A DNA stretch of 37,609 bases from Deltaproteobacteria bacterium (lineage in GTDB: Bacteria > JAEEML01), in contig JAEEML010000069.1 of the NCBI GenBank assembly GCA_016283195.1, positions 1 through 37,609 on the forward strand, in the 5' to 3' direction. Below the pieces are notes generated by a model, which worked only from the letters and a program-made list of their open reading frames with translations, searched no databases and was not told the origin of the DNA. The position numbers and the translations under genes were made by a program. Positions 9,461-36,013 of this stretch are shown one piece after another (position 1 is the first letter of the stretch; the number at the start of each line of letters is the position of its first letter).

Positions 9461-10231
9461 TTAGTCTTTTATGCAACGCACCGAGCAGGAAATATTTTCT
9501 TTTTTCTCAATTTCAACACTCATCCAAGTTATTTTCAGCGGAGAACCTGTAGAGCAGAAATAGGCAAAATCACCCATTCTATCATAAAAGGGATCAACAT
9601 TATTTCTTCCAGCATAACGGTAGCCGGCTGGCAGGGCCGAAAAGCCATAAGTATTTTCGCCCTCATGAAAGCTTTTATCTCTAAGTCTTTTGGCCGGTAT
9701 CTCGCTGGAGGTAGTTATATCTCCACCGGCAAAAGCAATTAAATTTTGAAATTCTTCTTCGCTCGGCAAGTGCCACCCGGCAGGGCAAACTCTTATGGCA
9801 TCTGTCTGGTCATAAAGGCAGCCATATTGCTCAATAAATTGAGGATTTTGCTCTATATCGGCATAGCAGGTGACTGCGCTGCCGCCATTTGTCTGTTTAG
9901 TAGCTAAATTTTCGGCCATCCATTCCTTATTATTAATGACCACGGTTTTATATGTTTTGCCATCCACGGTAAGAGTGGAATAAGCGTGGCAGGCGCCATC
10001 TAGACAATAGCCAAAATTACCACAATCACTAATGGTAGCGCACACAGGTAAACATTCACCTTGGGTAAATTTTAAACTTTCTGCGCACTTAAAGCCATCT
10101 ACACATGAACGATCTTCATTACAAGGATAGGTGACTTCTCTCGAGGTGACATCGGCAAAATACATACAACCACCAGCTGTTAAAAGCGGCATTACGCTGA
10201 ATATGAATTTTAATTCTTTTAATTTCATCAC
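9461..10231 (-). CDS. Lipoprotein with Cys-rich repeats and one FISUMP (Fib_succ_major) domain
   Basis: Lipobox-like TAGGC, then YKTVVINNKEWMAENL, YGCLY, CPAGWHLPS, GFSALPAG and SVRCIKD. Confidence 0.85.
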   Translation of the reverse strand: MMKLKELKFIFSVMPLLTAGGCMYFADVTSREVTYPCNEDRSCVDGFKCAESLKFTQGECLPVCATISDCGNFGYCLDGACHAYSTLTVDGKTYKTVVINNKEWMAENLATKQTNGGSAVTCYADIEQNPQFIEQYGCLYDQTDAIRVCPAGWHLPSEEEFQNLIAFAGGDITTSSEIPAKRLRDKSFHEGENTYGFSALPAGYRYAGRNNVDPFYDRMGDFAYFCSTGSPLKITWMSVEIEKKENISCSVRCIKD

Positions 10232-10237
10232 CCACTC

Positions 10238-11776
10238 CTACCACCTGGCGCCGATGGTGAGCAGCGCTGCTTTTTTACTCACCGCTGGTGCAATGGTAAC
10301 AGACTGCTTATCAAGCTTTTTCTTACTCTTTTGGTATTTTACCCCAAAAATTATTGCGGTGGCCACGGCCGCTCCGGTTATACCAAAAGTGACATAACTG
10401 GCCACCTCCATGGAGCGGCCTCTTTGGGCTATAGCGGCCGCCTCGGTTTGGGAGAGTAGATTATTATTGGTTATTGGTTCATTACCTCTAAACTCATCTT
10501 CCGCCTCATGGGACTTAGCGGAATAAATAGCGGCCGACGAAATGAGGGCGATACCGGTAACGGCGAGAGCTCCGCCAAGAGCTCCGGCGGTAATAGAAGC
10601 GGCCAATAGCTTTGTATTGCCCTTGTTCTCTGGGGTCGCGCCGGTTTCCGGCCGGCTGGTTATGGCCGCCTCTTCGTTAGAACCCCGGATACAGCGCACT
10701 GCCAAATAACTGCTTCTTTTTCCGCTGGTTACTAAAGCTTTGCCGCTATCCACATATAATCCGTAGGCCTTGTTATTTTTATAGGCTGTACTTGACCAAA
10801 AATAGGCCTCGGTATCAAAAAATGAGCAGCCGCTCTTGTCGCAGCTACCGGCCGGCAAAGCGGAAAAGCCGGAGACATTTTTGCCTCTATCCCATTTTTT
10901 ATGGCGCAGATTATCGGAGCCTATAGCCCCCTTGCCAACCTGGTTTAAGAGGCGATCAAAATCCACTTTGCTTGGCAGGCGCCAGCCGGCCGGGCAGACT
11001 TTTTGGGCATCTTTAAAGGTGTAAAGCGCGCCATATTCTTTTTGCTTGCTGTTAATTTTATAGTCGATGTCGGCGGCAATATATTTCATGTTTTCGGCCA
11101 GCCAGGTGTGCCCGTCGATTTCCACCGTTTTGTAAACGGTGCCATCGCGCTCATCGGTAAAAGTGGCCCCCTGAATAGTCTCTTCGGCATCTTTAAGGCA
11201 GCGCACAGAGAGCCACTCAGTGGTCATATTATGGCATTTATTAGCGGAAACGCGGCCCGGAAGCAGGGTCAAAGAGTTTGCGTTAACTCCCTCATTATCA
11301 CACCAGGTTTTGGACCAAAAATAGGCGCCGGTTCCAAAATTCTCATAGCTACCCGATTCATACCTCCCGGCCGGCAGGGCGGAAAAGCCGGACTCGTTTT
11401 TGCCATCTTGCCAGCTAATATCGCGCAAATTACCCGAGCCCTCCTCACCTTCACCGACTTGGCTTAAAAGCCTGGTAAATTCCACTTTGGATGGCAAATG
11501 CCAGCCGCTGGGGCACACCTTTTGGGCATCGGCCCAGGAATATAAACAGCCATAATTTTTTATGGAACTCCCATGTTTACTATCGGTCCGGCAGCTAATT
11601 TCTTCGGCCACATATTTTATGTTTTCGGCCATCCAAGTCTTTTTGCCAATTTGCACGGTTTTATAAGTTGTGCCATCGCGCACATCGGTAAAAGTGCCCT
11701 GTTCCTGCGCCAAAGCCACGGAAGTAAAGAGTTCTATAGAGATAAAAAGAGCGGTTTTTATCCACACATTGTACAT
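10238..11776 (-). CDS. Secreted protein with two FISUMP domains and a C-terminal hydrophobic hairpin
   Basis: Start placed at ATG 11776 (RBS GAGG, signal ending ALA). Two copies of FTD.RDG.xYKTV...W(M/L)AEN...CPxGWxLPS...VRC, followed by two hydrophobic helices and a terminal LLTIGARW. Confidence 0.85.
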   Translation of the reverse strand: MYNVWIKTALFISIELFTSVALAQEQGTFTDVRDGTTYKTVQIGKKTWMAENIKYVAEEISCRTDSKHGSSIKNYGCLYSWADAQKVCPSGWHLPSKVEFTRLLSQVGEGEEGSGNLRDISWQDGKNESGFSALPAGRYESGSYENFGTGAYFWSKTWCDNEGVNANSLTLLPGRVSANKCHNMTTEWLSVRCLKDAEETIQGATFTDERDGTVYKTVEIDGHTWLAENMKYIAADIDYKINSKQKEYGALYTFKDAQKVCPAGWRLPSKVDFDRLLNQVGKGAIGSDNLRHKKWDRGKNVSGFSALPAGSCDKSGCSFFDTEAYFWSSTAYKNNKAYGLYVDSGKALVTSGKRSSYLAVRCIRGSNEEAAITSRPETGATPENKGNTKLLAASITAGALGGALAVTGIALISSAAIYSAKSHEAEDEFRGNEPITNNNLLSQTEAAAIAQRGRSMEVASYVTFGITGAAVATAIIFGVKYQKSKKKLDKQSVTIAPAVSKKAALLTIGARW

Positions 11777-12589: not shown

Positions 12590-15500
12590 TTATTCGTTTG
12601 TCATATTGTGCATGACAGAGTGCAGAGAGCGCGGAACTTCCAGTTGCAAGAGCTGCTCCATGGCCTTTTGGTCGCTCACGGTGCGTTGCACTGTGGGCGT
12701 GGGGTTCTCTTTGGTGCCGGGGAGCAATATAGCGCTTTCTACCGTAGCGCCAACTTTGGTGGTAAGACGCGGATCGGCCGGCAATTCGCCGCCCAGATTT
12801 TGTACATCTTTAATTAAAGCCCCTGTTTCGGCATCCAGCATATAGAGGCGGCTATTGCCGTTGCTGCCGGTAGATTCGCCGCAGCTGGAGGCTACGCCGA
12901 CGTCACCGCGGCCGCAGGAGACAGTTGGCTCGTAGGTGGTAATAACTACCATGCCGCCATTTTGGCCGTTGTTCTTGCGATAAGTAATAACACTCGGCGG
13001 GTTGACAACTCTCTCACCCGGCCTTAATTCCAAACGCCAGCCTTTAGCTGCCTTGGCGCTGGTGGCGCCCACACCCACTCTGGCATTAGCTGCTTTTAAG
13101 GTAATGTCTATATCGCTTTCGGTGCAGGGGCCGGTGGATGAGCAAAGCCCGTCTTCTAAAACGACGGAATATATATAGCCTGGGTTTTCGCAAATGAGGT
13201 CATTCCAGGCATAGCCCTCGGCTTGCTTTAAGAGCTGATCGCGGTCGCCGGTGCCAAAGATGGCTCTAAGCTTGTTGTCACCAGTGGAAATAGTTACCGG
13301 CAGGAAGAAAATTTGTTTCTTTTGATAATTTTGCGCCCGCGGTTCGGAATATGGCTCAATTAAGGGGTATTGCGTTCTAAAGACCACTTTGGGGCTATCC
13401 CAGTTGCTGATTTTGCCGCTGCTTAACTTTGTGCCCATGGCCGGTAAATTTTGCAACCACACTTGCCCGCCGTGATCCATAGCCACAATTTTGGTGTACA
13501 TGGGAATGGTGTCGTTTTGCGCGTTTCTAAAGGATTTCGGCCAAGTGAAAACCGGCGGCGCGGCAAAACTGTATTTCATGTTTTTGAGGTTGCTGTCGCT
13601 ATTCTTATATTGAGCGGCATAGAGGAGCTCGCCGGTATAAGGGTCAACAATATAATAGCCGCGCCCTTTTTGATCCAGGCTGTCAAAACCGCCGCCCAAA
13701 AGAGCTACCCACTTGGGCACATTGGTATTAAGCTGAATGGCGCCCACAGCCGACGGACTGGCGCTCATTTCCATCCAGGTTTCGCCGAACTGTTCGGTAA
13801 TCCCCCAGGTGGTGCGGGTGGTGGCACTCTCCGGCGGAAATTCCCAGAGGAATTTGGGGCTGGTTGTATCGGTGACATCCAGAGCATAATAGCTGTGGCC
13901 ACCTTGGCGCATACCGCCTATGAGCACTGTTTTCCATTTGTCTTTATTGGATAATTTATTGAGATCATCGTTGGCGCTGCCGATCCACACATCGCGGTAA
14001 GTCGGTGAAGCGTCAATAAAGTAGGCTTTGTTATCATAGCCACAGCCGGAGCCGTTTACTTTGCACATGTCTTTAAGGCGCGGTAACACGCTGGGCGGAA
14101 TAAAGGCCCAGAGCTCTTCACCGGTGGAATCTACCAGCTCGCCTTTGTTGTTATAAGTGCCGGCATGGAAAGCGTGAATCATGCCATCGTTGGAACCCAC
14201 CACATATATAGCCGGGCGGTTTTTAATAATACCGGCAAAACCGGCATTTTCCTGGCCCACCTGGCGATAGGATTTTTGGGCAAAGCTATCGGAAAGATTG
14301 CTGATTAAAAGTGGTGAAGAGTGGAATATATCACCCAGCTTCCACCAGCCGTCAACTGCCTCGCCTTTACTGTTTAACAAAGTAGAGAGGCTGCGCTCTT
14401 CGGTGGTATCGTTATCAAAATCCAAATCGTCAACATCAATGCCGCGCAAGAATTTAATGAGCCTTATAGCCTCTTCGTTAGAGGAGTAGCCAAAAGCTGT
14501 TTTGAGCTTGGCCAGATTGGTGGTATCGGTTGATAAAAATTCTATTTGTGTATCGCTCGCATCAAATTTGCCATCGGTATTGGCGGCTACCACGGTTTGA
14601 ATATTGCGGCGCGAGCCTGCAGGCTTACTTTCGTCGGCATAGCGGTAACAGCTGCCCACGTTTAAGTGGAAAGGATCCTGAGCCAGGGAGCCGGTGTTTT
14701 TATTTTGGTAATCGCCGGAAAGGCAGAGCTGAGCATCCCAGAAGGGCTTGCTGGCTAAAAGGCCGTCTTTATATTCCACAATAGTGCCATCGGCGCCAAC
14801 AATGCACATCTCGCTGTTATTATCGGGATCGGCGCAGGTGCAGGTGCTTTCAGTATCAAGTTCATCACAGAGTTCAAACTTATACATGTGGGCTTCCCAA
14901 TAAGGGAAGCTGTTTGTTGGCACAAAAGTAGTTGAAACAACAGTATTTTCGCCGCTGCCGCGCACACCGGCGACAGATGGCGCCGTATAGGTCATGGCCC
15001 GCGGCTTGATATCTTTAATGATGGTGGTGAGAGCGTTTTTTAACGAGTCAACATCATATGCCGGAATACAAATACCATCGCCGGCTTTAGCTGTTTGCTC
15101 AAGGACATCAGGACATTTGTCAGGATCCGCGATATTAGGCAAAGCAAACGAAATTGCGTAGGTAGTAATAATATTTCGCACTCCATCCCGCTCATCCATA
15201 AGATCTTTGTTTCGTAAAATATAAGCCACTTCGTCCATACAAGCATTGTTTTTGAATGCTAGTACGCCATCATCTTTGAAAACACTTCCGTAAAGATTAT
15301 CGGCAGTTGGCAAACCTGTAGCGCTGCATGAACCACCTCTCCCGCCGCTTGGTGCATCATAGGTTCCGGTCGGTTCACCATCGGTAAGAACAATCAAAAA
15401 GGAATTAGATTGGCATTTGTCACAAAATTGAGCCTGAGTAGCATCGGTTTTTCTTGCAAAATAGCCTACGTGATCAATGGATTCGGCTATTGGTGTACCA

Positions 15501-17332
15501 GTTGCAAATTTTCCAATCATGCCATATACTTCCTCTTTCATATCTTCTCTGATGTCATCCTCAAGGCAAGGAGTATCCTTCTTATTATCTCTACATGCTG
15601 TTTTGGTTTTTACAGTTGCGCATGATGGCTGGATGTCTTTTGTTGTGCTTTTTGTGGCTGTATAATGTAGATTTTTATTGGCGTTAGATGAACTGTTTCC
15701 AGGTTTGGCTGACGGAATATCAAGATAAGTAGTAATGCCGATGCGGATATCATCTTCCAATTCGCTGCGATCAAAGAGTGAATAAAGAGCAGCCGAAACT
15801 TGGACATCGCGACGGGGGTTAAAATTCATCCAATCACCAAGGTAAGCGTGTTTTTTGGTGAAGGTACAATTGTTGGAAGCAGAGATATTAGGTTCCGAGA
15901 GATTTACTGGGCAAGAGTTACTGGTGGCTGTGCCGGGAACAGATTCAATAGTAGCTAGACCCTGGGTGTTGAAATCGCAGCGCCTTAAGCTTGAGATATC
16001 AATGGCATCAATAGCTACTCCACTACACGTTCGCTCATCGCTGTATTGCCAGAACCAAGAATCATAAACACGCTCGACATTGCCTTTACCATATTTGATG
16101 GTTAACCGTAATGTATCGCCGTTAGTTAGGTCAATAGTAATTGGCTGACTTACCCAAGCTTGATTTTGACTATCCGGCTTTAGCGAATTGTTTGTTTGCC
16201 AACTGTTTTTATAGCTACACCAAGCATTTGCAAGCGAGCCATCATCGCGATCGGTAATGGCGCCGCTGTTGAGTTCTATGACGGCGGAAGCATGTACGGT
16301 ATTGCCTCTAACACTTTCGACACGAAGTGTGGCAGAGCCATCATCTGGAGTACGGTTAAAAGTCGGGGTGATAATGTAACTGCCAGTTGCACCGGTAAAG
16401 GTTGTAGAGAGTTGGTAGGCATAAGTTCTTGAGGTACTGGTCGCTACATCGGCGCGTATATAAGTGCGCCCATTATTGCTTTCTATTCGCGGGGTTAGAC
16501 AGTTGGCATTACCTCCTCCACAAGATGAGCTACTACTTCTAGTCATATCTTCGGCTTCAATATGGATATTATCATCTGTAGAAGGTAAATTAACTTGTGA
16601 GCCAGAGGTATTTTGGCCACAATTACATGAATTATATGGGTCACCGCTACCGCTACCGCATAGTGTGGAATAGTAACCCTGAGTACGCATACTATAGACA
16701 CAGCGGTTGATTTCTTCACATGATGAATACTTTGAGCAATATCTATATACTGTAGCATCAAATGTTTCTTTTTCGTTTGATGACCCGCGTCCGCAGGAAT
16801 TAACGGTGCCTTTCATAGAAGGAGCTTCATATACGTCAGGTCGATTAGAATAAGGGGCAGCAGTGTACCAGATACTGCAGCTTTTGTAATAGTCGGTCGC
16901 TTCCGGGCCTTTGGTTACAAGTGGTTTGTAATGTGGTCCTAGCCAAGTTATGCCGTCAGTGTCATAGACACCGACATACTTATCACGCTCCCCATCGCCA
17001 TTTATATCCGGCCCTAAAAGCTCATCAAAATTGCTATTAGCGCAAATTTTTGAATTGTTTGGTGCTTGCTTTTCATACCAACCATCTTTATAGCAATCTT
17101 CGCAGTTGTGAGAGAGCATGGAACCGGAAGTATCAATAAGAAAAGTGACGGTGATAGGCCAGTTGCTGGCTGCTGCTTTGCCGCCTACCGAAAAGAGATC
17201 GATATCATCGGCTTTGGCATTGCTCGGCAGGAGCAAAAGCGCCATTAACGATAAAAACACCCATCTTCCGTTAAAGGTTGCTTTTTTCATGACTTTATCC
17301 TCAATTTGTTTGTTTACGCTTTGTTTTAACAT
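12590..17332 (-). CDS. pilY1: Type IV pilus tip adhesin PilY1/PilC with vWA domain
   Basis: Signal peptide, MIDAS elements DTSGSM / TP / TDGEP, and beta-propeller motifs LGDIFHSSP, VGSNDGMIHAF, GEELWAFIP, GGMRQGG..YYALDVT..P..LWEF, FGTGD. An alternative start exists at 17290. Confidence 0.92.
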   Translation of the reverse strand: MLKQSVNKQIEDKVMKKATFNGRWVFLSLMALLLLPSNAKADDIDLFSVGGKAAASNWPITVTFLIDTSGSMLSHNCEDCYKDGWYEKQAPNNSKICANSNFDELLGPDINGDGERDKYVGVYDTDGITWLGPHYKPLVTKGPEATDYYKSCSIWYTAAPYSNRPDVYEAPSMKGTVNSCGRGSSNEKETFDATVYRYCSKYSSCEEINRCVYSMRTQGYYSTLCGSGSGDPYNSCNCGQNTSGSQVNLPSTDDNIHIEAEDMTRSSSSSCGGGNANCLTPRIESNNGRTYIRADVATSTSRTYAYQLSTTFTGATGSYIITPTFNRTPDDGSATLRVESVRGNTVHASAVIELNSGAITDRDDGSLANAWCSYKNSWQTNNSLKPDSQNQAWVSQPITIDLTNGDTLRLTIKYGKGNVERVYDSWFWQYSDERTCSGVAIDAIDISSLRRCDFNTQGLATIESVPGTATSNSCPVNLSEPNISASNNCTFTKKHAYLGDWMNFNPRRDVQVSAALYSLFDRSELEDDIRIGITTYLDIPSAKPGNSSSNANKNLHYTATKSTTKDIQPSCATVKTKTACRDNKKDTPCLEDDIREDMKEEVYGMIGKFATGTPIAESIDHVGYFARKTDATQAQFCDKCQSNSFLIVLTDGEPTGTYDAPSGGRGGSCSATGLPTADNLYGSVFKDDGVLAFKNNACMDEVAYILRNKDLMDERDGVRNIITTYAISFALPNIADPDKCPDVLEQTAKAGDGICIPAYDVDSLKNALTTIIKDIKPRAMTYTAPSVAGVRGSGENTVVSTTFVPTNSFPYWEAHMYKFELCDELDTESTCTCADPDNNSEMCIVGADGTIVEYKDGLLASKPFWDAQLCLSGDYQNKNTGSLAQDPFHLNVGSCYRYADESKPAGSRRNIQTVVAANTDGKFDASDTQIEFLSTDTTNLAKLKTAFGYSSNEEAIRLIKFLRGIDVDDLDFDNDTTEERSLSTLLNSKGEAVDGWWKLGDIFHSSPLLISNLSDSFAQKSYRQVGQENAGFAGIIKNRPAIYVVGSNDGMIHAFHAGTYNNKGELVDSTGEELWAFIPPSVLPRLKDMCKVNGSGCGYDNKAYFIDASPTYRDVWIGSANDDLNKLSNKDKWKTVLIGGMRQGGHSYYALDVTDTTSPKFLWEFPPESATTRTTWGITEQFGETWMEMSASPSAVGAIQLNTNVPKWVALLGGGFDSLDQKGRGYYIVDPYTGELLYAAQYKNSDSNLKNMKYSFAAPPVFTWPKSFRNAQNDTIPMYTKIVAMDHGGQVWLQNLPAMGTKLSSGKISNWDSPKVVFRTQYPLIEPYSEPRAQNYQKKQIFFLPVTISTGDNKLRAIFGTGDRDQLLKQAEGYAWNDLICENPGYIYSVVLEDGLCSSTGPCTESDIDITLKAANARVGVGATSAKAAKGWRLELRPGERVVNPPSVITYRKNNGQNGGMVVITTYEPTVSCGRGDVGVASSCGESTGSNGNSRLYMLDAETGALIKDVQNLGGELPADPRLTTKVGATVESAILLPGTKENPTPTVQRTVSDQKAMEQLLQLEVPRSLHSVMHNMTNE

Positions 17333-32947: not shown

Positions 32948-33016
32948 CGGGCATTGTAGCGGCGTAAAATTGCAGAAATTGTAGAGGCGTAAAATATTAC
33001 GCCTCTACAATGCCCG
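32948..33016. repeat. GTAG-type REP-like palindrome with a duplicated arm
   Basis: Perfect 15-bp inverted repeat attgtagaggcgtaa (32978-32992) / ttacgcctctacaat (32997-33011), plus a second left arm at 32948-32967. Confidence 0.7.
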
Positions 33017-34024
33017 CACAGTCACTACAGTACCATCATTTTGCGGCCTGGCTGCGACATGGCCCGGGGCAAAAGCCTCAGCCAGATTGAGGAGAACTTG
33101 ACATTCTTGAGAGAGGGGAGGAGCCAAAAATTCGCCGCCTCCAAGAGCTAACATGGGAATAATCAGCTGATAAGTGAGTTTTTCCGAAACGGGAAAAACA
33201 CTTTGCATATATTCTATAAGTTCGGCAGTGGCATCCTCGGCTACTTTTTCGGCCCGCACACCGCGCTGGCCCACTCCTGAAACCAGCATATTAAGGTTTT
33301 CATAATAGAGAGCCAGATTGATGACATTGCCTGTTGTTGGCGAATTATCAAACACAATATGGCACTCTTTGGCCGGCCAGCCCAGGCGACTATGGGCCAC
33401 GGCTAATTCACGCTCGGCGATATGGCCCGGCAAATTGGCATTAATAACTGTTAGTTTGCGCTTTATAAGAGCGCCGCGCTCCAGAAGTTTTAGCGGCTTA
33501 TGCTGTACTGCCGGGTGAATATCCAGCTGAATTTTACCGCCACCGACGGGATAAAAACCACGTTGCCCGGTATGAAAATCATAATGGCCGCCCATTTGGC
33601 TCAAAAGTGGAAAATAACATTCGGCTAAATAGTCCACTGTGGGCATACCGGCCAAATGGGTTACTCCTTGCAGTTTTAATAATGAAGGGCTTTTTTGCCG
33701 GGCCAGAGCTGGAAAAACAGTGGTGAGAGTCTGGCCTATATTATTGGAATTCTGGCTGGTGAACATAACAAGGCCGCTTTTTATTTCTCCGGGGGTAAAG
33801 GTGAGACTGTCCTGCCCGATGGCCCCACCTATTATGGCGGCATTGCTTATATCGGCCGCAGCCTTTATTAAGGCGGCATCAGCGGAGGAAAAGCCGCTTT
33901 GACCGCCGACTTTATAATCACTAAAGTTAAATGCCCGGCCGGTGACAAGTGACAAGGCTAGGGCAGAGCTTAAGCACCAGGAGTCAGCCTGAAACAAAGC
34001 GCTGTTTATAGTAATTTCGGCCAT
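33005..34024 (-). CDS. rtcA: RNA 3'-terminal phosphate cyclase (RtcA)-like protein, active site degenerate
   Basis: Full length (339 aa), with SALALS..TG, FTPG, RGFYPVGGG, LPGHIAERE, GVRAEKVA and QLIIPM..GGGEF all colinear with RtcA. The catalytic motifs are altered. Confidence 0.85.
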   Translation of the reverse strand: MAEITINSALFQADSWCLSSALALSLVTGRAFNFSDYKVGGQSGFSSADAALIKAAADISNAAIIGGAIGQDSLTFTPGEIKSGLVMFTSQNSNNIGQTLTTVFPALARQKSPSLLKLQGVTHLAGMPTVDYLAECYFPLLSQMGGHYDFHTGQRGFYPVGGGKIQLDIHPAVQHKPLKLLERGALIKRKLTVINANLPGHIAERELAVAHSRLGWPAKECHIVFDNSPTTGNVINLALYYENLNMLVSGVGQRGVRAEKVAEDATAELIEYMQSVFPVSEKLTYQLIIPMLALGGGEFLAPPLSQECQVLLNLAEAFAPGHVAARPQNDGTVVTVRAL

Positions 34025-34159
34025 TATTTGCTGTTCTCCTCATATTGTTCGGTTATTGCCTTAACCAAACAATGGCGGCTTTTATCATGCAAGGCGCGCT
34101 ATGGCTACTTAAATATGCAGAAAAATATTGGTGCCATGAAAAACAAATAATTTTTTCCC

Positions 34160-34188
34160 TTGACAAGCCCTGGCCACTATTGTAGAAG
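34160..34188 (+). promoter_or_regulatory. Sigma-70 promoter of tRNA-His
   Basis: TTGACA-N17-TAGAAG preceded by an AT-rich tract, ending 14 bp before tRNA position 1. Confidence 0.55.
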
Positions 34189-34202
34189 CTTTTTCGCTCG
34201 GT

Positions 34203-34278
34203 GCTGCCTTAGCTCAGCTGGTAGAGCGCCTGACTGTGGCTCAGGAGGTCGTAGGTTCGAAGCCTGCAGGCAGTACCA
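34203..34278 (+). tRNA. tRNA-His (GTG), non-canonical acceptor end
   Basis: Hand-folded cloverleaf: acceptor GCTGCCT/AGGCAGT, D-arm GCTC/GAGC, anticodon stem CCTGA/TCAGG with loop CT-GTG-GC, T-arm GTAGG-TTCGAAG-CCTGC, A73 and encoded CCA. Confidence 0.95.
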
Positions 34279-34348
34279 CTTCTTTTTTTCCCCTACAATT
34301 ATTTTCTTCTTTAAAAGAGGCTGCTTAGACGTGAGTGGCTTTTTCGGT

Positions 34349-36013
34349 TTAGAGCTCAAAGAAGATGTATTTTAGAGCTTCCAGCATATCGGGAGTGGAT
34401 TGGTCAAGGCTTTTAATGGTGATACTGCTGTGGACAACGGTGCCTCCATTTTCATGGGGCTTAAAACTCACGAGGAGAGCCGCATTGCTCAGATTGTTGC
34501 CGTTAGTTAAGGGCGCATCGCCTTTTATCCAGACGGTGGTTTTTGCAGGTTGGGAACTCTCCATGACTGCCCAGTTGCTATTATTATAATTCATCTTGAT
34601 GGCTTTTGTGGTTTCCCCGGCGGCTGCTCCAAGAGCTGCGGCTAAGGGTGCTTTAATAGCTTGGGCGTCGTAGCCATGGCCTGTGCCGCCTTGATTAGCA
34701 CTGTTTCCATTTTTGTCTCCGGAGGGAACATCTTCACTGCCCACCCAATCGATATAGCCCCGCAGGCTGATACGCAAGATTTCATAAGCATAGTCAGAGG
34801 CGTAAATAGAGCCGCCGCCTTGCAAGTAGAGGTTAATATTAGCGGCAACAGAGCTGTTGGCTCCATCGAGGCGCTGAAAAGCCGAGCTGTTAAAGATGAT
34901 TATATCAAAGTCTTGCATCCAAGCGAGATTGCCCAAAAATGTATCGGTAATATAATGCTGATCCTGATTTCGGCCGTCTATCACGGTAACGTTGCCGCTT
35001 GGATTAAGTATTGGCGGCAGGTTGCGGTCGTCGCCATGGTTATATTTTTGGTAAATATCGAATTTCAAAGCCGGTAATACATTTTCTTCAAATTTATCAT
35101 GGTAGCCGGTGACGACGGCAATTTTAATTTTGCTGGTATCTACACATTTTGGAGTGTCAAGTGGGGTTTCCACATTGGCGTTTACTTTGGCGGTAAAAGA
35201 GGTACTGTAGCGGTTATGCTTGGCATGGACGGTAATACTTTCGCCGACGGGAATACCTCTTAAGATGAATTTGCCCTGGGCGCCGGTTTCTGCCGATTGA
35301 TAAAAATTGCCCATTTCTACGAAAACCTGAGAGCCGGCCAGCATATAATTATCACTCTCTCCGTCGTAATATGAACAAATTTGTCCTGTAATATCGCCAT
35401 GTTGTACTGGCTCGCAGGCCTCTTCGCCAATAATAATTTCCTGGCCCTCGGCGACGGTGACATTATAATCTTTTTCGTAATCTTTGTTTTTCACATGAAT
35501 AACTCGCTCGCCTCTGGGAGCCTCAAAAGAAAATTTGCCTTCGCCATCGGTGGTGGTAGTAAGTTTGCCGGCTTTGGTGCTCACCGACACCTCTCCACCG
35601 TTGACCCAAAGGCCGGTGCGCTCATCACATAGGCGCCCTTTGACGGTGCCGGTAGGTTCTACACACTCCGGCCATTCCACGCTTTTTTTGACATTTTCGT
35701 CAACCTTGATTTCGCGGGTGTCGTTAAAACCGTCGGTGGTATAAGTTACGGTGTAATCCGAGGCGGCAATGTGTTCCACCACATAGTAGCCGGATTCAGC
35801 AGCTTTTACGGTTACCGGGGCAAAGCAGTTACCTCTGATGGTTTTTGGGGTAAATGTTACTGTGGCATTGGGTACAAAATTTTCACTGGCGGCATTGCAA
35901 ACATGGCCTCTTACCGAGCCGCTTCCCGGGCAGATGACATATTCTTCTTCTTCGCAGGCAGCAGTGCAGAGAGCCAGAGAGGCTACAAACAAAAAGCGAT
36001 GGGAAAAACGCAT
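34349..36013 (-). CDS. Lipoprotein with three carboxypeptidase-regulatory-like (Cna-B/prealbumin fold) repeats and a C-terminal GATase-like domain
   Basis: Lipobox CTAAC, three G.(V/I).G..C...T..xGxF repeats, then KIAVVTG..D, FDIIIFNS and GGSIYASDYAY. Confidence 0.7.
   Translation of the reverse strand: MRFSHRFLFVASLALCTAACEEEEYVICPGSGSVRGHVCNAASENFVPNATVTFTPKTIRGNCFAPVTVKAAESGYYVVEHIAASDYTVTYTTDGFNDTREIKVDENVKKSVEWPECVEPTGTVKGRLCDERTGLWVNGGEVSVSTKAGKLTTTTDGEGKFSFEAPRGERVIHVKNKDYEKDYNVTVAEGQEIIIGEEACEPVQHGDITGQICSYYDGESDNYMLAGSQVFVEMGNFYQSAETGAQGKFILRGIPVGESITVHAKHNRYSTSFTAKVNANVETPLDTPKCVDTSKIKIAVVTGYHDKFEENVLPALKFDIYQKYNHGDDRNLPPILNPSGNVTVIDGRNQDQHYITDTFLGNLAWMQDFDIIIFNSSAFQRLDGANSSVAANINLYLQGGGSIYASDYAYEILRISLRGYIDWVGSEDVPSGDKNGNSANQGGTGHGYDAQAIKAPLAAALGAAAGETTKAIKMNYNNSNWAVMESSQPAKTTVWIKGDAPLTNGNNLSNAALLVSFKPHENGGTVVHSSITIKSLDQSTPDMLEALKYIFFEL

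Follow-up and report, generated by a model that had tools for sequence, protein, structure and literature searches.

The only tRNA-His gene found in the genome of a bacterium that appears to be related to Myxococcota encodes no G at position -1 (G-1). The same genome encodes a single histidyl-tRNA synthetase (HisRS), of the kind that serves G-1-less tRNA-His in Alphaproteobacteria. Judged from both sequences, this is the known system in a new lineage. We consider it likely that the sole tRNA-His starts at G1, that a HisRS of the G-1-less clade (the delta-G-1 clade) charges it, and that the pair was acquired or inherited.

G-1 is among the most conserved identity marks of any tRNA. In bacteria, the canonical tRNA-His has an encoded G-1 opposite C73, which is retained by RNase P and read by HisRS of the E. 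coli or T. thermophilus type, according to Tian 2015 (PMC4357726). The G-1-less pair has been described in RRCH Alphaproteobacteria and most of SAR11; the model that was tested is Caulobacter crescentus (Yuan 2011, PMC3064791; Amrine 2014, PMC3937112). Wang et al. 2007 and Ardell & Andersson 2006, as cited in these two papers, also deal with the pair.

The tRNA-His gene has no encoded G-1

All positions given below, unless another contig is named, refer to a stretch of 37,609 nucleotides, on one contig of the assembly, that we call the window. ARAGORN places a tRNA-His(GTG) gene at 34203..34278, on the + strand. The Rfam model RF00005 matches 34203-34275 with 65.6 bits, against a gathering score of 29, and our own tRNA-His covariance model gives the gene 87.1 bits. 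The Rfam alignment sets the register, with G34203 as model position 1 and A34275 as the final model position. In this register, the letter at -1 (34202) is T, not G. The two strands of the acceptor stem are GCTGCCT and AGGCAGT, pairing G1 with U72 (G34203 and T34274) and C2 with G71. The discriminator, at 34275, is A73 rather than the C73 of canonical bacterial tRNA-His, and CCA is encoded at 34276-34278. The anticodon loop, CTGTGGC, places a G at position 37.

Hence, with no encoded G-1, and with G1:U72, C2:G71, A73 and G37, the gene is like tRNA-His of the Caulobacter type. Both G1:U72 and A73 are present, and the canonical mark, an encoded G-1 opposite C73, is absent. Compared with canonical tRNA-His, the gene differs by the missing G-1, by U72 in place of C72, and by A73 in place of C73. 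It shares the GUG anticodon, the cloverleaf and the encoded CCA; the cognate enzymes also share the class IIa HisRS fold family.

The letters themselves are reproducible. Contigs from three public runs, belonging to three studies, cover the gene (X1, 34086-34331; X2, 34152-34352; X3, 34183-34401), and no letter differs within 34202-34278. Differences between these contigs and the window occur only at 34171 or from 34282 onwards. Note that one of the three runs may be the source sample. Of the runs listed for this stretch, none is registered as RNA. A previous reading of this DNA, from sequence only, had described T at -1, G1:U72 and A73. That description holds for the sequence, the ARAGORN call, the Rfam register and the contigs of the three runs, which have neither C at 34275 nor G at 34202.

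The draft assembly, of 3.2 Mb in 190 contigs, contains one tRNA-His gene among the 46 tRNA genes called by ARAGORN. The runner-up to our covariance model in the genome is a tRNA-Arg, with 75.3 bits (compared with 87.1 bits for tRNA-His). Neither method found another tRNA-His, canonical or otherwise, in the assembly. In a draft of 190 contigs a second copy could sit in unassembled DNA; ARAGORN called no tRNA-Ile in the same contigs.

The gene is flanked by rtcA and a CarboxypepD_reg gene. The former, encoding an RtcA-like RNA 3'-terminal phosphate cyclase (33005..34024, - strand; matches to PF01137 and PF05189, with NF003246 and TIGR03399 below cut-off), is divergent from the tRNA gene. We treat it as context, without a functional link to tRNA-His. 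Scanning 33900-34500 for promoters gave one promoter-like site, at 34061-34088, which is no more than in shuffled sequences, and a scan of the same interval for terminators gave none. By eye only, a TTGACA at 34160 and a run of T past the CCA can be seen, for which we make no claim.

The single HisRS belongs to the delta-G-1 clade

The genome has one hisS gene (G000:C61:14308-15777, minus strand), on a separate contig from tRNA-His. The product, of 490 aa, matches TIGR00442 with 371 bits. The two other matches to this model score 34 and 21 bits and fall in open reading frames that are 616 and 596 aa long. Hence, as in the Caulobacter-type system, there is one long HisRS. The best 80 of 586 relatives (loci) are 47-59% identical to it; by title, 70 of these 80 are alphaproteobacterial, seven are non-proteobacterial and three are named only as Pseudomonadota or Proteobacteria. 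The seven comprise Polyangia, Planctomycetaceae, two Pirellulaceae, Syntrophobacteraceae and two entries titled 'bacterium'. Identity to the alphaproteobacterial enzymes is 47-54%. By blastp, it is 25-30% to the HisRS of four genomes with canonical tRNA-His, taken from the phylum sample described below (G158, G147, G108 and G110). The G110 enzyme, to which identity is about 25%, is E. coli-like and the only one of the four compared with solved structures.

In a tree of 69 rows, the HisRS falls within the delta-G-1 clade, with 100 SH-aLRT support. The root was set by six Myxococcota HisRS, five from genomes with canonical tRNA-His and one from a genome in which tRNA-His was unread. This quick tree places the HisRS outside the alphaproteobacterial subclade, which has 98 SH-aLRT support; in an AU test, a clade of the alphaproteobacterial enzymes plus this HisRS was not rejected (p 0.382). 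We therefore make no claim about the donor or the direction of transfer. The position outside the subclade, with a sister position not rejected, and the Myxococcota-related host, set the pair apart from the Caulobacter-type system.

Residue signatures agree with the tree. Four Asp of the HisRS align with Arg-Asn-Gly-Asp of the E. coli enzyme. We take this site to be Arg-Gly-Gly-Arg of T. thermophilus HisRS, using the motif given in the text of the paper and matching it by position before LRPE/LRYD. According to that paper (Tian 2015, PMC4357726), Gly72'-Gly73' make the G-1 pocket of the T. thermophilus enzyme, and Caulobacter HisRS has an aspartate pair at the site of the pocket glycines. In the motif-2 loop, the HisRS has Gly where E. 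coli has Gln118, and the alphaproteobacterial enzymes are the same; this Gln-to-Gly change is noted for them in Amrine 2014 (PMC3937112). The loop is not fully diagnostic, since the HisRS of G141, a genome with canonical tRNA-His, has an identical one. Finally, the anticodon-binding domain (PF03129, residues 378-483) contains about 18 inserted residues. The insert is common to the whole delta-G-1 clade and absent from the enzymes that accompany canonical tRNAs. Yuan 2011 (PMC3064791) proposed the anticodon-binding domain insert as the basis of anticodon discrimination. Hence, acidic residues in place of the pocket glycines, a motif-2 Gly in place of Gln and the insert are all shared with Caulobacter-type HisRS, and the lack of a glycine pocket is a difference from the canonical enzyme. 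The divergent HisRS that the sequence-only reading associated with such a tRNA is present and, by tree, identities, motif-2 loop and other signatures, of the same kind as in Alphaproteobacteria.

The genome's single HisRS would charge this tRNA-His. As a member of the G-1-less clade, it has probably lost the glycine pocket for G-1 and gained the insert in the domain that binds the anticodon. Since it is homologous to the Caulobacter enzyme, the elements that it reads are most likely the GUG anticodon, U72 and A73, rather than G-1:C73. Recognition through the anticodon and U72/A73 has been shown for Caulobacter only, where U72 ranks as a major identity element and A73 as a minor one (Yuan 2011, PMC3064791).

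The host is related to Myxococcota

Among the 120 RpoB matches listed there are 31 named organisms, all 31 non-alphaproteobacterial: 28 Myxococcota taxa, two named 'Deltaproteobacteria bacterium' and one 'Pseudomonadota bacterium'. The best GyrB matches are in genomes of the phylum to which the Polyangia MAG belongs, and nine named alphaproteobacterial genomes score lower. In 5.8 billion proteins, RpoB, GyrB and Asd have one close relative each. The nearest relative is 85% identical for RpoB, 89% for Asd and 83% for HisRS, similar distances of the sort expected from one sister organism. A search within the host genome's own phylum gave no further genome, and a search for relatives gave only kin from the same domain. 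Judged by these markers, the host, an uncultured bacterium of the gut or rumen, is a relative of Myxococcota and, as the neighbouring genes had suggested in the sequence-only reading, not an alphaproteobacterium.

TIGR02145 (Fib_succ_major) has 116 matches genome-wide. Three of these are on the tRNA-His contig, as domains in two genes (9464..11695, - strand; TIGR02145 and PF09603), and the hisS contig has some too. A Fibrobacter host was dropped despite these matches, because RpoB, GyrB and Asd have just the one close relative noted above and RpoB points to Myxococcota.

The tRNA-His contig and the hisS contig belong to the same genome. Tetranucleotide correlation with the genome is r 0.989 for the former and r 0.979 for the latter, and the genome median is 0.982. 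It is extremely improbable that either contig is alphaproteobacterial contamination of the metagenome bin. The bin is a draft with 4.18% estimated contamination, and a Syntrophobacteraceae MAG and G055, both with non-alphaproteobacterial labels, have HisRS nested in alphaproteobacterial subclades; hence, mis-binning or recent transfer does occur. Here, however, both contigs fit the tetranucleotide profile and GC content of the genome, and both carry Fib_succ_major genes. Furthermore, the HisRS is outside the alphaproteobacterial subclade, the distance to its nearest relative resembles that for RpoB and Asd, and the bin is without a second tRNA-His or a second HisRS.

Processing of the tRNA-His precursor

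The leader of the gene, at positions -3 to -1 (34200..34202, + strand), is GGT. In the precursor, this GGU is complementary to A73, C74 and C75, and in the predicted fold the acceptor helix is lengthened to 10 pairs. Across the genome, bases -1 and 73 are complementary in 29 of 42 tRNA genes that encode CCA; permutation gives a mean of 15.1, and none of 10000 permutations gets as high as 29. Similarly, 28 of the 42 have G at -2, complementary to base 74. Since the -1:73 complementarity is genome-wide, it is not a signal specific to tRNA-His. The genome also has a type-A RNase P RNA (G000:C150:1974-2353; 320.9 bits). We infer that this ordinary RNase P would cut the precursor at G1, and that mature tRNA-His would have a normal acceptor stem of 7 pairs and no residue at -1.

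RNase P might instead cut one base earlier. In that case U-1 would stay on the mature tRNA-His, giving an acceptor stem of 8 pairs with U-1:A73 as the counterpart of canonical G-1:C73. In E. coli, -1:73 pairing helps to shift RNase P toward keeping the -1 base (Yuan 2011, PMC3064791, discussion); given this, and the pairing of the leader with A73-C74-C75 in the 10-pair helix, a U-1 form is possible. Of the A73 genes in the phylum sample, 4 of 13 also have T at -1, as do 3 of 5 hisS-linked tRNA-His genes among the non-proteobacterial loci. For three tRNA-His of the same type elsewhere (L008, L017 and L127), the ARAGORN call itself takes in a 5' T. Conversely, the many other tRNAs of the genome with the same complementarity require the normal +1 cut, relatives of the same type differ at -1 (a, t, g or c), and the HisRS pocket for a -1 base is lined by acidic residues. 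Weighing these points, we regard the U-1 form as improbable, and cleavage at G1 as the preferred reading.

Even less probable is post-transcriptional addition of G-1, by a Thg1-like protein or another enzyme, followed by recognition in the usual G-1-dependent manner. Eukaryotes combine A73 with a G-1 that is added in this way, and some Myxococcota reportedly have Thg1-like proteins. In addition, C73 is accompanied by C at -1 in one sampled genome (G156), which would require such addition. However, the Thg1 family PF04446 has no match in the present genome at E values up to 1. The Thg1C family PF14413 has only one, of 12.4 bits and E 0.37, which is chance level. This is in a genome with CheckM-type completeness of 100%. 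Hence, the Thg1-like option raised by the sequence-only reading is unsupported, and the genome is, in having no Thg1 gene, like the Caulobacter-type system. Moreover, the HisRS has no glycine pocket, and belongs to a clade whose Caulobacter member has been shown to work without G-1. Certain eukaryotes also combine tRNA-His without G-1, no Thg1 and a non-canonical HisRS. Unlike these, the present host is bacterial, and we take the eukaryotic cases to have an independent origin.

A73 and HisRS class co-vary in other genomes

From the phylum of the Polyangia MAG, 47 of 121 genomes were selected on their HisRS class, 44 of which yielded a tRNA-His reading. All 13 genomes with a delta-G-1-clade HisRS have A73; 11 of the 13 have G1:U72 and three have G at -1. 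The remaining 31 all have C73, with G at -1 in 30. A73 tRNA-His and delta-G-1 HisRS thus co-occur without exception in this Myxococcota sample.

The two genes are often neighbours. In 7 of the 13 A73 genomes, tRNA-His and hisS are less than 2 kb apart. Among the best 80 of 586 relatives, the same is true at 5 of the 7 non-proteobacterial loci and at 0 of the 73 others; hence, it is often seen in non-alphaproteobacterial relatives, unlike the alphaproteobacterial-titled loci (0 of 70). In the present genome, where the two genes are on separate contigs, a tRNA-Ala(GGC) is upstream of hisS.

Members outside Alphaproteobacteria vary in ways not described in print. Planctomycete bins have C1:G72 with A73, two Myxococcota genomes have an encoded G-1 and G1:C72 with A73, and the D-loops of non-alphaproteobacterial members range from 8 to 10 bases. 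In Alphaproteobacteria, all members have a 9-base D-loop with U20a, and U20a was required to make E. coli tRNA-His a substrate for the Caulobacter enzyme (Yuan 2011, PMC3064791). The present tRNA-His differs: its D-loop has 8 bases and, hence, no base 20a. The 9-base D-loop with U20a may mark only the alphaproteobacterial subgroup.

Origin of the pair

The pair appears to be spread over several phyla beyond Alphaproteobacteria, often with tRNA-His and hisS side by side. Its most likely route into the host lineage is horizontal transfer of the two genes, or inheritance from an ancestor that had gained them, and the two would since have become unlinked. Such co-transfer fits the adjacency seen elsewhere, which would make joint transfer easy. 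The tRNA itself gives a hint in the same direction. Over the tRNA body (positions 8-65), the eight most similar tRNAs, at 81-88% identity, are all of the A73/G1:U72 type. The ranges overlap, with 72-88% for the A73 group and 66-79% for canonical tRNA-His, so the comparison only faintly suggests descent of the body from an A73-type tRNA. The sequence-only reading had proposed either independent loss of G-1 or transfer of the pair. Transfer, or inheritance within a wider non-alphaproteobacterial pool, is retained. Independent loss does not fit, because the HisRS is homologous to the alphaproteobacterial type (clade support 100 SH-aLRT).

A different route, which we think possible but rather unlikely, is that hisS alone was acquired, and that a resident canonical tRNA-His changed in place, losing G-1 and replacing C72 with U and C73 with A. 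This route was proposed for Alphaproteobacteria by Ardell & Andersson 2006 (as cited in PMC3064791 and PMC3937112). In the present genome, this would be consistent with tRNA-His and hisS being on different contigs, with ordinary chromosomal genes (rtcA, ndk and lptFG) as the neighbours of tRNA-His, and with an 8-base D-loop, as in most canonical tRNA-His. Identity of the tRNA body to canonical Myxococcota tRNA-His also reaches 79%, within the overlap of the two ranges. Against it, the eight closest bodies are all G-1-less, although a comparison of 58 bases has little power in either direction, and tRNA-His adjoins hisS in 7 of 13 phylum genomes and 5 of 7 non-proteobacterial loci. Hence, we prefer acquisition of both genes, directly or by an ancestor.

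Wider implications

Our search of the literature, covering tRNA-His in Fibrobacter, planctomycetes, myxobacteria, Acidobacteria and Deltaproteobacteria, and HisRS in work from 2012 on, found no report of the system beyond Alphaproteobacteria. A 2023 review (PMC9976931) agrees with the published picture, which the present case widens. Taken together, the Myxococcota-related case, the perfect co-variation of tRNA and enzyme, and the frequent linkage of their genes show that the trait extends further than published accounts say. It is correspondingly weakened as a phylogenetic marker, for example in the SAR11 debate.

We see an even balance for and against a broader proposal: that the system is a portable identity module of two neighbouring genes, tRNA-His and hisS, not a one-off alphaproteobacterial synapomorphy, and that it has replaced canonical G-1 repeatedly, at least in Myxococcota and Planctomycetota, and probably in Acidobacteriota and others. 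If so, Alphaproteobacteria would be one recipient among others, and possibly not the source. The present genome would then hold a fully domesticated module, with its two genes separated. The pair would be a natural example of an essential tRNA identity rule being swapped, by moving tRNA and synthetase together. It also adds further candidate HisRS/tRNA-His pairs, which may be orthogonal in E. coli.

A tRNA-His gene lacking G-1

The only tRNA gene detected in the window by ARAGORN is a tRNA-His(GTG), at 34203-34278 on the plus strand. The Rfam tRNA model matches 34203-34275 with 65.6 bits, and the alignment sets the register; G34203 is model position 1 and A34275 the last position. The acceptor stem strands read GCTGCCT (5') and AGGCAGT (3'), so that the first pairs are G1:U72 and C2:G71. 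A73 precedes an encoded CCA, and T occupies position -1 (34202). In the anticodon loop, CTGTGGC, base 37 is G. The D-loop, of 8 bases and without U20a, differs from the published alphaproteobacterial set; outside Alphaproteobacteria, we found D-loops of 8 to 10 bases. Sequence, ARAGORN and Rfam register thus all bear out the sequence-only reading, which described a tRNA-His without G-1:C73, carrying G1:U72 and A73. Contigs spanning the gene from three public runs, belonging to three studies, are identical across 34202-34278, with all mismatches in the flanks. Neither C at 34275 nor G at 34202 occurs in any of them. The window assembly may itself derive from one of these runs. The tRNA gene is flanked by rtcA and a CarboxypepD_reg gene. 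The former, at 33005-34024 on the minus strand, encodes an RtcA-like RNA 3'-phosphate cyclase that falls below NCBIfam equivalog cut-offs; it is divergent from tRNA-His and 178 bases upstream.

The genome has one tRNA-His and one hisS, which are unlinked

The window's genome is a 3.22 Mb draft in 190 contigs (completeness 100%, contamination 4.18%). ARAGORN lists 46 tRNA genes, one of which is tRNA-His. A covariance model, built from 17 tRNA-His genes, gives the window gene 87.1 bits, and the runner-up, with 75.3 bits, is a tRNA-Arg. Hence, this is the sole tRNA-His in the assembly. One further ARAGORN call, an 89-base 'tRNA-Asp(atc)' at G000:C65:39747-39835, is absent from the 45 Rfam tRNA matches and is probably false.

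A single hisS gene was identified by TIGR00442 (490 aa, 371 bits), on the minus strand of contig G000:C61, at 14308-15777; two further matches, in open frames of 616 and 596 aa, are weak. By composition, both the tRNA contig and the hisS contig are part of the bin: they correlate with the genome's tetranucleotide profile at 0.989 and 0.979, respectively, against a median of 0.982 for 106 contigs. Many relatives have tRNA-His immediately before hisS. Here, the two genes are unlinked, and that place is taken by a tRNA-Ala(GGC) on the strand of hisS, 76 bases before it (G000:C61:15853-15928; L001:2932-3007 in the extracted locus).

The host is related to Myxococcota

A search of 5.8 billion proteins gave RpoB a single close relative (85%), followed by a long list at about 70%. 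Organism names accompany 31 of the 120 listed matches: 28 are Myxococcota taxa, two are 'Deltaproteobacteria bacterium' and one is 'Pseudomonadota bacterium'. For GyrB, encoded on another contig, the best matches are genomes from the phylum of a Polyangia MAG, and nine named alphaproteobacterial genomes score lower; this placement is a comparison of scores rather than a tree. GyrB itself (G000:C31, L115:1498-4302, minus strand) has 934 aa and may contain an insert of some 75 residues, since its matches to other genomes cover residues 1-192 and 267-934 separately. Asd, encoded in the window, has relatives at 89%, 66% and then at most 60%. Searching the genome collection for the genome's own 'phylum' gave no second genome. 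The window stretch occurs in runs whose labels are sheep, bovine gut and gut metagenomes. We therefore assign the host to a Myxococcota-related lineage from gut or rumen that has been sampled poorly. It certainly lies outside the alphaproteobacterial RRCH clade, as the earlier reading had supposed from the surrounding genes. The Fibrobacter succinogenes major paralogous domain (TIGR02145) has 116 matches in the genome, three of them on the window contig (9464-11695) and one on the hisS contig, yet RpoB and GyrB point to Myxococcota, and public data hold almost no close relatives.

The HisRS carries Caulobacter-type signatures

Among 5.8 billion proteins, HisRS has one relative at 83% identity and the next at no more than 61%; the named matches (8 of the 120 listed) include Candidatus Lernaella, Blastocatellia, a Gammaproteobacteria MAG and Pikeienuella. 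With one genome taken per species, the best 80 of 586 relatives are 47-59% identical. Seventy of these have alphaproteobacterial titles (including Rhodobacterales, Hyphomicrobiales, Parvularculaceae, Parvibaculum and Robiginitomaculum), three say only Pseudomonadota or Proteobacteria, and seven are non-proteobacterial. Solved structures match far more weakly (E 1e-23 to 9e-59).

Three features liken the enzyme to those of the known G-1-less system. First, in T. thermophilus HisRS, Gly72'-Gly73' are described as forming the G-1 pocket, where Caulobacter has two aspartates (Tian 2015, PMC4357726); our HisRS has four aspartates where the E. coli enzyme aligns Arg-Asn-Gly-Asp. Second, E. coli Gln118, in the motif-2 loop, is replaced by Gly, given as a derived RRCH character (Amrine 2014, PMC3937112). 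The loop is nearly identical to that of alphaproteobacterial enzymes, but is not diagnostic by itself, since genome G141, with a canonical tRNA-His, shares it. Third, about 18 residues are inserted inside the Pfam anticodon-binding domain (residues 378-483). An insert of this sort has been named as the likely basis of anticodon reading (Yuan 2011, PMC3064791); the one here occurs in every member of the G-1-less HisRS clade and is absent from enzymes of genomes with canonical tRNA-His. Judged by these residues, the HisRS is of the G-1-less kind, with three published Caulobacter-type signatures.

A73 accompanies this HisRS outside Alphaproteobacteria

We searched 121 genomes from the Polyangia MAG's phylum with the HisRS. 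The best identity was 52-61% in eight, 45-47% in three and at most 42% in the rest. From these, 47 were chosen by HisRS class, a non-random choice, so that the counts below are not prevalences. Each tRNA-His was located by covariance model and then read; three genomes, where the top match was another tRNA, were dropped (n=44). A73 was present in all 11 genomes with at least 45% HisRS identity and in two, with 39-40%, that branch basally in the clade. G1:U72 is present in 11 of these 13 genomes; across all 13, the bases at -1 are a, t, g, g, t, t, c, c, c, g, c, t and c. The other 31 all have C73, with G at -1 in 30 and C in one. Binning errors cannot explain this pattern, because the A73 genomes include large contigs or single-contig genomes (e.g. 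G087, 6.0 Mb; G057, 5.2 Mb). The C73 exception, in an 8.6 Mb genome (L143, G156:C35:228775-228848), would require post-transcriptional addition of G-1.

In seven of the 13 A73 genomes, hisS is within 2 kb of tRNA-His, the tRNA being mostly 50-320 bases upstream. Among the best 80 of the 586 HisRS loci, five have tRNA-His in a 2 kb flank, all within the seven with non-proteobacterial titles; none was found in the 2 kb flanks, some of them shortened, of the other 73.

Two variants were also observed. Three planctomycete bins (L056:1766-1840, L068:1856-1929 and L069:1848-1922) and locus L017 (G026) have tRNA-His with C1:G72, A73 and no G-1, an acceptor end not found in the tRNA-His literature surveyed. 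In the three bins, a HisRS gene of the G-1-less clade follows directly. In two genomes of the Polyangia MAG's phylum, tRNA-His (L128, G161:C15:74147-74219; L129, G151:C1:283374-283446) has an encoded G-1, G1:C72 and A73, and a HisRS gene of that clade lies 50 bases downstream. Their G-1/A73 arrangement resembles that of eukaryote tRNA-His.

Phylogeny and origin of the pair

A quick IQ-TREE phylogeny (LG+G4, SH-aLRT support only) was made from 69 rows. Besides HisRS and its 83% relative, these comprise 34 loci of named genomes, 16 of the Polyangia MAG's phylum and 17 further database proteins. Six of the 16 formed the outgroup, five with canonical tRNA-His and one (G121) whose tRNA-His was not read. 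The G-1-less clade, which contains our enzyme, has support 100. Within it, an alphaproteobacterial subclade of 30 rows (support 98) also includes a Syntrophobacteraceae-labelled bin and a single member of the Polyangia MAG's phylum, both of them either mis-binned or recent transfers. HisRS and its 83% relative pair with support 100. The pair falls outside the subclade, in a group of 17 rows (support 92) with the Polyangia MAG, Candidatus Lernaella, the Gammaproteobacteria MAG and metagenome proteins; this group adjoins planctomycete bins. The claim we draw from the tree is that HisRS is not nested within Alphaproteobacteria. It stops short of donor or direction, because the backbone is weak and an AU test did not reject a single clade of the pair and the alphaproteobacterial subclade (log-likelihood difference 8.55, p 0.382).

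Over positions 8-65, the tRNA body is 81-88% identical to its eight nearest tRNA-His, all eight of the G-1-less type. Canonical tRNA-His of the same phylum sample reach up to 66-79%. We favour joint acquisition of tRNA and enzyme, because the nearest tRNA bodies are G-1-less and tRNA-His is often linked to hisS elsewhere. The same two observations speak against adaptation in place of a resident tRNA-His; since the comparison is short and the identity ranges overlap, we regard this alternative as less likely but still a serious one. Of the explanations first proposed (independent loss, transfer of the pair, or G-1 addition by a Thg1-like protein), transfer is the one that fits.

Predicted 5' processing and recognition

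The third proposal found no gene to rest on: Thg1 (PF04446) has no match in the genome at E up to 1, and Thg1C (PF14413) has only one, of 12.4 bits (E 0.37). A type-A RNase P RNA is encoded (320.9 bits). RNase P would cut the precursor at G1. The leader GGU (34200-34202) can pair with A73-C74-C75 (34275-34277), which might instead favour a cut one base upstream and a mature U-1 form. Yet in 29 of the 42 CCA-encoding tRNA genes, bases -1 and 73 could form a Watson-Crick pair (permutation mean 15.1, sd 2.8; 29 reached in 0 of 10000), and base -2 is G, pairing with C74, in 28. Leader pairing with the 3' NCC end is, from the gene sequences, a genome-wide habit in this one genome. Since all those tRNAs need the normal cut, such pairing cannot single out tRNA-His for cleavage at -1, and we consider the U-1 form very unlikely.

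HisRS would read the GUG anticodon and U72, with A73 a minor element, as in Caulobacter. For that enzyme, reported losses are 91- to 1000-fold for anticodon changes, 91-fold for U72C, 3-fold for A73C and 5-fold for an added G-1 (Yuan 2011, PMC3064791).

The relevant passages of a review (Giege and Eriani 2023, PMC9976931) speak of G-1-less tRNA-His only for some Alphaproteobacteria, as do those of Mukai 2017. In the literature searched, we found no report of the pair outside Alphaproteobacteria, although earlier mention elsewhere is possible. We conclude that the window tRNA-His is the known G-1-less system in a new, Myxococcota-related lineage, with its two genes unlinked. It belongs to a wider pattern, which may be that of a portable tRNA-His/hisS module shared among several phyla.
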